A stretch of 64,000 nt of DNA from Escherichia coli. Lineage in GTDB: Bacteria; Pseudomonadota; Gammaproteobacteria; Enterobacterales; Enterobacteriaceae. Both the position numbers and the translations under genes were made by a program. The stretch is taken from the NCBI RefSeq assembly GCF_003334815.1, contig NZ_QOWO01000001.1; one strand, 5' to 3'. Below, piece by piece: positions 22,768 through 24,164 of this stretch. The notes beneath the pieces were generated by a model. The model was given only the letters and a program-made list of their open reading frames with translations, did no database searches and had not been told where the DNA came from. Positions within the stretch are counted from its first letter, which is position 1. The number at the start of each line of letters is the position of its first letter.

Positions 22768-23331
22768 TTATTCATTGATCAGTTTCTGCGCCAACGCAAT
22801 GACATGATCTACCTCTTCCGGCGTCAGGCTGCCGTCCTTTGCCCACTGAATTTGCCCGGCTTTATTCAGCACCAGAATGGTTGAACTCTGCTCCGGCAAG
22901 CGCCAGGCAACGCGTCCCTGTCCATTGCCGTCAATAACGAATTGCGCCCACGGATAGCGGCGTTTATTTTTTTCGATTTTGCCAACAACAAAATAGCCAG
23001 TACCAAAGATGGCATCATCGGTGTTCACAATGGTGGTGGGCTGAAAACGATCCTGCGGAAAGTTTGCCGCTTCAACCGCTTTAATTAACAGTGAGTTCTT
23101 TTTCTTCGCCGACTTACGCCCGGCGATATACTGAATAATGCGGACTTTTCCCGCTAATTGTGTGCTGTTCCACTTTTGGTAGTGAATTTCGTCGTCGCTA
23201 TTCAGAAGCAGCTCGCCGCCTTCCTGGATATAAACAGGGGTAACCGTTTTGCCAGTGACGAAATTGTGTGCCTGCACACCCGGGGCTAAGAGCATGATAA
23301 TCAACGCAATAATCAAACGAGATGACATCAT
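22768..23331 (-). CDS. Secreted periplasmic protein, YtfJ-like
   Basis: 187 aa with a cleavable signal peptide (MMSSRLIIALIIMLLAPGVQA). Resemblance to YtfJ is from memory. Confidence 0.5.
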   Translation of the reverse strand: MMSSRLIIALIIMLLAPGVQAHNFVTGKTVTPVYIQEGGELLLNSDDEIHYQKWNSTQLAGKVRIIQYIAGRKSAKKKNSLLIKAVEAANFPQDRFQPTTIVNTDDAIFGTGYFVVGKIEKNKRRYPWAQFVIDGNGQGRVAWRLPEQSSTILVLNKAGQIQWAKDGSLTPEEVDHVIALAQKLINE

Positions 23332-23339
23332 TGCTCCGG

Positions 23340-24164
23340 CTATAGCGGAAAACGCGAAATCAGCAGCTCTAAGCGCTGACGAATATCGCTATCCAGCGCC
23401 ACCGGTGCATCATACGACTGGCGGTTTTCCATATCATCCGCCACCATGTCGTCGTGTTTATCTCCCATCAGGCCATTAATGGCGGCGAGGAAGCGGGATA
23501 TCTGTAACGCCTCTTTATTTTCAGGATCAAGCGATCTTAAGGTGTCGTAATAAGAAACCTGCTGGCTGATGATTTTTCGCACATCATGAAATTCCCTACC
23601 GGTTAGTCGCGGTTTGGCAATAATCTCTTTCAGGGTATGCATTTGCTTTTGCCGATAGGCAATAAAACTGCTTACGCTTTCTAACTGGCTATGGCGTAAT
23701 GAATAGTTCACCAACGACCAGACCGGAGAGCTTAAATAAATCCGTAACAGGTTGCCGTAATACGACACAATATTTTTCTTACCGTTACGAAAGCCGTCCT
23801 GAAAACGCCCCAGAAAAACGGTCGTTTTGCCGAATAAAAATCCGGCCTGATGCTTCTTTAAATACAGCCGTTGCGCAAAACGCAGGTGCTTGTAGCGCGC
23901 TCGCATGTATTTAAATTGTTTGCGCTCATCAGCAGTCAGCTCATCGCCTTTGGCTTGTTTGCGAACTAAACGCAGTAACTCCTGACGATCAACGCCATTG
24001 AGCCAGAATTGCAGGCATAACGCGTAATTATCATGAATGATTTCGGTGGTACAACTTAGTGCAATAGTCGGCGGCAAACTAACCTGTGCATCAACGACAT
24101 CATCTTCTTCAATCGCAACAAATAGACGCTCGCTCGCCTCAAGCGGGAAATATTTTCTCATCAT
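23340..24164 (-). CDS. Hypothetical cytoplasmic protein
   Basis: 274-aa ORF with no signal peptide or TM segment; tightly packed between yghQ and the YtfJ-like gene. No motif recognised. Confidence 0.5.
   Translation of the reverse strand: MMRKYFPLEASERLFVAIEEDDVVDAQVSLPPTIALSCTTEIIHDNYALCLQFWLNGVDRQELLRLVRKQAKGDELTADERKQFKYMRARYKHLRFAQRLYLKKHQAGFLFGKTTVFLGRFQDGFRNGKKNIVSYYGNLLRIYLSSPVWSLVNYSLRHSQLESVSSFIAYRQKQMHTLKEIIAKPRLTGREFHDVRKIISQQVSYYDTLRSLDPENKEALQISRFLAAINGLMGDKHDDMVADDMENRQSYDAPVALDSDIRQRLELLISRFPL

Follow-up and report, generated by a model that had tools for sequence, protein, structure and literature searches.

The locus analyzed here lies in a 64,000-nucleotide stretch of the Escherichia coli chromosome (hereafter the window), of which positions 20500 to 25600 are 100% identical to CFT073 and to many other strains. 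Between glcC and pitB the window encodes yghO on the minus strand (14953..16173), whose product is a bacterial ceramide synthase-type N-acyltransferase (aca/bCerS homologue), the ceramide-backbone operon aasR-cerR-acpR-spt on the plus strand (16463..20556), the minus-strand string lptG2-lptF2-ytfJ2-X274-yghQ-yghR-yghS and, back on the plus strand, yghT. Spt passes NF047599, the NCBI equivalog model for serine palmitoyltransferase, with 599 bits (cut-off 500). Read in the direction of transcription, the minus-strand string starts with yghS (26349..27062), which encodes a P-loop kinase paralogous to that of the dTMP-kinase superfamily specified by yghR (25559..26317), and continues through yghQ (24164..25513), coding for a full-length 449-aa flippase of the MOP superfamily (Wzx-like), X274 (23340..24164), ytfJ2 (22768..23331) and lptF2 (21667..22737) to lptG2 (20591..21670 with the RefSeq start adopted here; the longest ORF would start at 21751). 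A third P-loop kinase paralogue is encoded in divergent orientation by yghT (27236..27928, plus strand). The lptF2 and lptG2 products are paralogues of LptF and LptG, LptF2 being a putative sphingolipid exporter permease (bioRxiv 10.64898/2026.04.12.717747).

Our interest centers on the two genes in the middle of this string, annotated in CFT073 by RefSeq as 'YtfJ family protein' (ytfJ2) and 'hypothetical protein' (X274). A previous sequence-only reading of the window had placed here a secreted YtfJ-like protein of 187 aa and a cytoplasmic protein of 274 aa, packed between the flippase and the LptF/G-like pair with almost no spacing, and both the reading frames and their tight, co-oriented arrangement are confirmed, with RefSeq setting the ytfJ2 start one codon downstream of the ORF start. 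The stop codon of yghQ and the start codon of X274 have one nucleotide in common (TGATG), and this junction appears arranged for translational coupling; X274 and ytfJ2 are separated by 8 nt, with a GGAG preceding the ATG, ytfJ2 and lptF2 by 30 nt, and the RefSeq model gives lptF2 and lptG2 an overlap of 4 nt. Terminator-like matches inside the string occur at the frequency expected from shuffled sequence, and none of them is convincing. Promoter and terminator scans stayed at chance level throughout, except for a GC-rich hairpin with a 16-bp stem between the convergent spt and lptG2 genes (20559..20593), which is likely a bidirectional terminator ending both operons. Since terminators do not exceed chance inside the string and the strong hairpin is found only past lptG2, co-transcription from yghS to lptG2 is likely. 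Rfam yielded no match between 14 and 30 kb of the window.

The sphingolipid genes of this locus have been described before. The aasR, acpR and spt genes of E. coli B have been characterized biochemically, yghO and cerR have been named as ceramide genes, and Sphingomonadaceae and Gluconobacter figure among the listed carriers of spt (PMC9386255). The locus of E. coli UTI89 has been shown alongside that of Caulobacter, in which the export of anionic sphingolipids requires LptF2/G2 together with the housekeeping LptB, with lptC2 being restricted to Caulobacter; the same work states that, as of 2026, components of sphingolipid trafficking in bacteria, periplasmic ones among them, were still unknown (bioRxiv 10.64898/2026.04.12.717747). 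According to the literature on the locus, UTI89 and BL21 also carry it in full, but this literature defines neither a lipid product for E. coli nor a transport route beyond LptF2G2. X274 and ytfJ2 are mentioned in neither PMC9386255 nor bioRxiv 10.64898/2026.04.12.717747.

X274 has no hydrophobic window (maximum KD19 of 0.82) and is therefore cytoplasmic, as the sequence-only reading had it; its pI of 9.3 and net charge of +7 both coincide with the medians of its family. The same reading found no recognizable motif in this protein, which holds for the single sequence: searches of Pfam and NCBIfam returned no match (CHAD being absent from the Pfam results at E<=10), and neither did a search of PDB sequences with a shallow Enterobacterales alignment. 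It does not hold for the family, whose profile and fold reveal a divergent CHAD domain. An exhaustive search recovered relatives of X274 in 212 clusters at the 50% identity level. In a 71-sequence alignment, R88, D123, H193, R196 and D238 are invariant, and K92, R95, H105, G119, Q122, K197, N230, G234 and H237 nearly so. The Pfam CHAD model (PF05235) matches 17 of these 71 relatives at E<=0.1, with a best value of 2.5e-5, and reaches an E-value of 0.0027 on P0370, a fusion protein. When the 71-sequence profile was run against all PDB sequences, the top match was the CHAD structure 6QV5 (E 0.0023), aligned in register over both characteristic motifs (KhiRarfKhLRfa in the X274 family against hqMRVGVRRLRSA, and FHelRK...iNglMGdlHD against aHRTRI...TQEELGRHND); 6qv7 aligns in register as well. 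The fold of X274 consists of two four-helix bundles and resembles the solved CHAD structures. Foldseek also places 6QV5 first, with a probability of 0.95 but an insignificant E-value of 0.22 and a TM-score of only 0.46.

In both structure and sequence, X274 is thus matched best by CHAD proteins (PF05235), represented by RcCHAD of Ricinus (6QV5), CtCHAD of Chlorobium (3E0S/6QV7) and PptA of Streptomyces (6RN5). X274 shares with them an all-helical build, with two helical bundles in about 270-300 residues, a basic charge and the motif pairs, in which a basic helix (K/H-x2-R-x3-K/R-x2-R) is followed by [LM]G-x2-[QH]D, and like these cases it is a stand-alone protein encoded beside kinases of the dTMPK/PPK type. 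It differs from Pfam CHAD members in that the E. coli protein scores below threshold and has lost several basic residues of the second half, in an additional N-terminal segment (residues 1-77) and in the company of its gene, which sits with a MOP flippase in or alongside sphingolipid loci and not with PPK, PPX or TTM enzymes. Taken together, these data identify X274 as a cytoplasmic, basic and divergent stand-alone CHAD-domain protein.

In characterized CHAD proteins polyphosphate is bound in a basic cavity formed by these helices, and binding is abolished when the His and Arg residues are mutated (PMC6537752). The basic CHAD positions R88, K92 and R95 are retained in the first half of X274; in the second half H193 and R196 persist, while S200, Q201 and V203 take the place of later basic residues. 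On these residues, phosphate binding by X274 seems plausible; the loss of the second-half positions makes binding of long-chain polyphosphate uncertain, and a polyphosphate-type mode of binding may have been lost. The X274 domain also comes in other arrangements: Luteibacter has tandem genes for it, P0243 is a fused tandem, and in P0370 two copies are fused to a secreted APH-type kinase, a fusion that ties the domain to kinases independently. The genomic context of P0370 and that of a secreted form (P0360) are uninformative.

Using one genome per species, we collected 79 X274 loci from other species and identified their neighbors by tblastn with all proteins of the E. coli locus and by all-against-all clustering of neighboring ORFs. 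The hosts belong to the Enterobacterales, Rhodanobacteraceae, Sphingomonadales and Acetobacteraceae. A MOP flippase is found within the module in 70 of the 79 loci, and in 65 of these other-species loci a YghQ-type flippase lies immediately upstream of X274. This adjacency holds in all 41 Enterobacterales loci having upstream sequence, in 18/19 Sphingomonadales, 4/5 Rhodanobacteraceae and 2/6 Acetobacteraceae, the other four Acetobacteraceae encoding the flippase elsewhere within the locus. Kinases of the YghR/S/T type accompany X274 in 72 of the 79 loci, in three copies in 45 of them, and a T-type kinase, the most widely conserved partner of X274, occurs together with an R/S-type kinase in 64 of the 72 kinase-bearing loci. 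The conserved module hence consists of two or three kinases of the dTMP-kinase superfamily, a MOP flippase and the CHAD-like X274. We hold both the gene identities and membership in this module with high confidence.

The LptF/G-like pair, next to which the sequence-only reading had noted the two genes, is by contrast not a conserved partner of X274. X274 lacks a nearby lptF2G2 in 31 loci from Sphingomonadales, Acetobacteraceae, Rhodanobacteraceae and others, the pair being absent within 10 kb from the Sphingomonadales and Acetobacteraceae loci, and in 15 Enterobacterales loci lptF2G2 has been relocated while the flippase, X274 and ytfJ2 are still together. Co-occurrence with the serine palmitoyltransferase gene, which had been proposed as a check on a lipid-related role, is also lineage-dependent: within a distance of 10 kb, X274 is accompanied by spt in 39/44 loci from Enterobacterales and 5/5 from Rhodanobacteraceae, as against 0/20 from Sphingomonadales and none from Acetobacteraceae. 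The families concerned are known as a whole to make sphingolipids; with no spt within 10 kb, the tie of X274 to sphingolipids in these two groups is one of taxonomy alone. As additional neighbors of X274, sphingomonads have a PmrAB/QseBC-like two-component pair, Rhodanobacteraceae an acyl hydroxylase similar to OlsC/LpxO and an RND pump of the MdtABC type, and Acetobacteraceae a GT4 glycosyltransferase, all of which would be consistent with remodeling of envelope lipids.

The three kinases of the E. coli locus retain intact Walker A (GCDGSGKST), DR[YF]PQ and RKPDH motifs, and hence none of them is an obvious inactive regulatory subunit. Their nearest relatives are nucleotide kinases: the best PDB matches of the YghR/S/T profile are thymidylate kinases (E 2e-6), compared with an E-value of 0.025 for the PPK3 homologue 2plr/5h70, and Pfam gives only weak Thymidylate_kin matches. 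The designation 'dTMP kinase', which RefSeq applies to yghS and yghT, is thus best read as a family-level label and not as a function. An assignment to PPK2 was also considered, but is unsupported by any Pfam match. The pairing of such kinases with a CHAD protein has a precedent in crenarchaeal PPK3, a heteromer of two dTMPK-superfamily paralogues whose genes are accompanied by those for PPX, SixA and a CHAD protein (PMC12995831). The Sulfolobus operon (saci_2019/2020 with the CHAD gene saci_2021; PMC12995831) likewise combines at least two dTMPK-superfamily paralogues with a CHAD-fold protein; unlike this archaeal operon, the YghR/S/T-X274 module lacks PPX and SixA, includes a membrane flippase and resides in bacterial lineages that carry spt.

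The neighboring ytfJ2 gene encodes a secreted member of the YtfJ family, in agreement with the sequence-only reading: it scores 212 bits against TIGR01626 (cut-off 151) and matches PF09695 at an E-value of 2e-59, and its sole hydrophobic segment is a Sec-type signal peptide (residues 1-21) with predicted cleavage before H22 (MMSSRLIIALIIMLLAPGVQA|HNF). YtfJ2 has a thioredoxin/TlpA-like fold devoid of cysteines. The E. coli protein has none, and 33 of 36 mature homologues have none either, two cysteines never being found. The position of the CXXC is occupied by an invariant basic loop (G71-R72-x-S74-A-K76-K77-x-N79), which sets YtfJ2 apart from the TlpA/DsbE/ResA oxidoreductases and from peroxiredoxins, as it has neither CXXC nor a peroxidatic cysteine. 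Two roles that might be attributed to such a protein can be excluded on these grounds. YtfJ2 is not a thiol-disulfide oxidoreductase, having the thioredoxin fold but no CXXC and no cysteine, and it is not a substitute for LptC or LptA by homology, since these have a beta-jellyroll fold.

E. coli encodes a second, housekeeping YtfJ (b4216), beside ytfK and cysQ, that is similar to YtfJ2 over its full length (54% identity), with the same signal peptide, mature N-terminus (AHxF) and invariant residues. YtfJ2 orthologues encoded in the sphingolipid locus elsewhere in the Enterobacterales mostly share 59-70% identity with the E. coli protein, more than the housekeeping YtfJ of E. coli does, which suggests an old duplication. 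The ytfJ2 gene is the one found in the sphingolipid locus and is absent from locus-negative genomes. Housekeeping YtfJ is present in locus-negative E. coli too, and the YtfJ fold is consequently not intrinsically sphingolipid-specific; no functional study of YtfJ was found in the searchable literature. In the 79-locus survey YtfJ2 is confined to Enterobacterales, where its gene directly follows X274 in 44/44 loci and adjoins lptF2 in only 29 of them. YtfJ2 joined the flippase-X274 operon in Enterobacterales only.

The sphingolipid locus of Caulobacter (CC_1152-CC_1168) is alike in the backbone genes aasR, cerR, acpR, spt and cerS, a MOP-type flippase and LptF2/G2. According to published descriptions, the Caulobacter locus has no homologue of YghR/S/T, X274 or YtfJ, encoding instead the head-group enzymes CpgABC, the flippase CC_1166 and LptC2/F2/G2. 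The ceramide kinase CpgB, the Tam41-like protein and the CDP-alcohol transferase of Caulobacter are all missing from the E. coli locus, and the absence of CpgABC implies that the chemistry of the head group differs in E. coli. We suggest that YghR/S/T might furnish the ceramide supplied by the neighboring spt operon with a phosphorylated, anionic head group; that X274 might bind the phosphate or oligophosphate part of it, or else the donor of the phosphate, at the cytoplasmic face, linking the kinases to the YghQ flippase; and that YtfJ2 might bind or edit the flipped anionic head group in the periplasm, from where LptB/F2/G2 would extract the lipid towards the outer membrane. Enzymes of the dTMPK type act by phosphorylating a phosphomonoester, and pyrophosphate-linked lipids are the usual substrates of MOP flippases. 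Both properties fit the proposal, as do the absence of CpgABC in E. coli and the need for LptF2G2 in Caulobacter specifically for an anionic sphingolipid. Nonetheless, the roles assigned here to the kinases, X274 and YtfJ2 are tentative and rather less likely than not, and the account as a whole, comprising identities, module and mechanism, has in our judgment slightly less than an even chance of being correct. A more specific version, in which the module YghR/S/T-X274-YghQ would produce a pyro- or oligophosphate anchored to a lipid, such as ceramide pyrophosphate or polyphosphate, and flip it, with YtfJ2 receiving the head group for export by LptB/F2/G2, should be seen as a long shot.

Other explanations have to be weighed against this proposal. 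One of them would make X274 and YtfJ2 accessories of the LptF2/LptG2 exporter, YtfJ2 replacing the missing LptC2/LptA and X274 acting in the cytoplasm with LptB. Both genes adjoin lptF2G2 in E. coli and are probably co-transcribed with it, and the Caulobacter-restricted lptC2 and the unknown periplasmic components acknowledged in the preprint (bioRxiv 10.64898/2026.04.12.717747) leave room for such factors. The wider survey speaks against it, however, both through the 31 X274 loci without lptF2G2 nearby and through the 15 in Enterobacterales where the pair has moved off and flippase, X274 and ytfJ2 have stayed intact; when combined with the mismatch between a thioredoxin fold and the beta-jellyroll of LptC/LptA, this makes the explanation an unlikely one. 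A second departure from our proposal keeps X274 with the kinases and YghQ but denies it a phosphate ligand: its CHAD helices would mediate protein contacts only, gating YghQ or assembling the kinases without binding phosphate, and YtfJ2 would be a bystander. The erosion of the second basic patch, an altered geometry, as hinted at by the TM-score of 0.46, and the regulatory-subunit precedent offered by PPK3 all agree with such a regulator or scaffold. It is nevertheless improbable, because the invariant residues of X274 fall on the basic, His and Asp positions of CHAD (R88, K92, R95, H193, R196, D123, D238) and not on a hydrophobic interface, because the +7 net charge is conserved family-wide, and because purifying selection acts on YtfJ2, whose gene keeps its synteny in 44/44 loci.

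It may also be asked whether the module deals with lipids at all. YghR/S/T could be PPK3-like enzymes or polyphosphate-dependent nucleotide kinases and X274 their polyphosphate-binding partner, the proximity of spt being either incidental or related to energy or phosphate supply. The pairing of dTMPK paralogues with CHAD does match PPK3 operons, X274 retains H193/R196 and R88/K92/R95 at the CHAD motif positions, the phosphate transporter gene pitB adjoins yghT in Escherichia, Pseudocitrobacter, Hafnia and Citrobacter, and spt is not beside the module in Sphingomonadales. Against these observations stand the MOP flippase in 70/79 loci, with its stop overlapping the X274 start, the lack of PPX, SixA, PPK1 and PPK2 among the neighbors in the 79 X274 loci, a distribution over spt-carrying or known sphingolipid-producing lineages and the preference of the YghRST profile for dTMP kinases (E 2e-6) over 2plr/5h70 (E 0.025). 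E. coli, moreover, possesses its own polyphosphate enzymes. A polyphosphate module therefore appears quite unlikely, and we retain the anionic head group as the preferred interpretation. For both proteins, a role as accessory factors for lipid handling, as put forward in the sequence-only reading, may still apply, and that reading is on the whole partly supported.

The sphingolipid locus and its LptF2G2 pair were already published, and both protein families are of known types (CHAD and the YtfJ/thioredoxin fold). In the searchable literature, on the other hand, no description was found of the 'hypothetical' gene as a CHAD member, of a kinase-flippase-CHAD module shared by three proteobacterial classes (alpha-, beta- and gammaproteobacteria) or of the dedicated cysteine-free YtfJ paralogue, nor any paper that mentions both the CHAD domain and sphingolipids. 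The combination of CHAD, flippase and kinases leads to a concrete chemical hypothesis, that of a phosphorylated and possibly oligophosphorylated head group, and YtfJ2 becomes a candidate for the periplasmic step that is missing from the picture in Enterobacterales. Both the sphingolipid head group of E. coli and the way it is handled in the periplasm are thereby opened to direct testing. More generally, the CHAD family and its association with dTMPK paralogues are extended beyond the biology of polyphosphate granules. Should a lipid-linked pyro- or oligophosphate prove true, most E. coli and the sphingomonads would possess an anionic outer-membrane sphingolipid of a new class, and X274 would be the first CHAD domain acting on a lipid-linked phosphate chain.

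The evolutionary record within Escherichia shows that both genes are maintained and transmitted with the locus. Against three other Escherichia lineages, dN/dS amounts to 0.07-0.08 for X274 and 0.09-0.12 for ytfJ2, and both are under purifying selection. The sphingolipid locus is found in full in about three quarters of complete E. coli genomes, CFT073 included: the block from aasR to X274 is present, at a coverage of 80% or more, in 4067 of 5426 (~75%), and ytfJ2 alone in 4121 of 5426, while the housekeeping ytfJ is found in practically all E. coli genomes. X274 and ytfJ2 are hence not the widespread housekeeping genes that would have spoken against a link to the lipid genes, but are inherited with the sphingolipid locus. 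In K-12 MG1655, IS5 replaces everything between a truncated yghQ and yghO, and K-12 has thus lost the block, including spt, as one piece through an IS5 event. The yghQ phenotype reported in K-12, a 2-fold increase in the MIC of chlorhexidine, belongs to this truncated remnant.

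The genomic context of the kinase-flippase-X274 module, composed of the YghR/S/T dTMP-kinase-superfamily kinases, the YghQ MOP flippase and the divergent CHAD-domain protein X274, hints at its regulation as an envelope-charge response. This suggestion stems from a two-component pair, whose sensor kinase is PmrB/QseC-like and whose response regulator is PmrA/QseB-like, adjoining the module in 12 of the 20 Sphingomonadales loci and also in Carnimonas. The pair maps about 4.7-7.0 kb upstream of X274 (loci L054, L056, L059-L061, L070 and L051). An MdtABC-type RND efflux system borders the module in the Rhodanobacteraceae and in one betaproteobacterial MAG, and in the Rhodanobacteraceae an OlsC/LpxO-like lipid acyl 2-hydroxylase occupies the interval from the kinases to aasR (loci with either or both types of neighbour: L040, L044, L047, L048, L052 and L074).

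The X274 domain itself has been duplicated in several arrangements (L040 9692-11760, L047 9152-10816 and L077 5501-8678; proteins P0243, P0370 and P0384). Luteibacter carries it as tandem genes, and there is also a fused tandem of 564 aa. In a Gammaproteobacteria MAG, one copy lies on each side of a kinase. A single protein from an unclassified MAG, about 980 aa long, combines a signal peptide, an APH kinase and two copies of the domain.

Comparison of K-12 MG1655 (L086, 3130146-3131340) with window positions 16100-24500 reveals an IS5 element in place of aasR, cerR, acpR, spt, lptG2, lptF2, ytfJ2 and X274, together with the 3' portion of yghQ, leaving truncated yghQ and yghO genes and intact yghR/S/T. 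In strain MB53 (L003), IS1 interrupts ytfJ2, encoding the secreted YtfJ paralogue, after 48 codons, and the remainder up to glcA is gone. In the window, spt and lptG2 converge on a GC-rich hairpin with a perfect 16-bp stem (20559-20593), which overlaps the lptG2 stop codon and is likely to act as a bidirectional terminator. The AT-rich divergent promoter region between yghS and yghT harbors a direct repeat, TTGTGACA...TTGTGACA, with 15 nt spacing (27128-27158), a possible regulator binding site.

Several RefSeq labels in the CFT073 annotation (L001) are probably over-specific equivalog or family names. The lptF2/lptG2 pair (20591-22737) is designated 'LPS export ABC transporter permease LptF/LptG'; this pair is the sphingolipid-locus paralogue. 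Both yghS (26349-27062) and yghT (27236-27928) are designated 'dTMP kinase'; their products resemble thymidylate kinase only weakly. The sole X274 orthologue named 'CHAD domain-containing protein' at source comes from L033, a contig titled Martelella alba BGMRC 2031. Under this alphaproteobacterial name, the contig carries a complete Enterobacterales-type locus, with 60-78% identity to that of E. coli, which probably reflects misassignment or contamination of the assembly behind this record.
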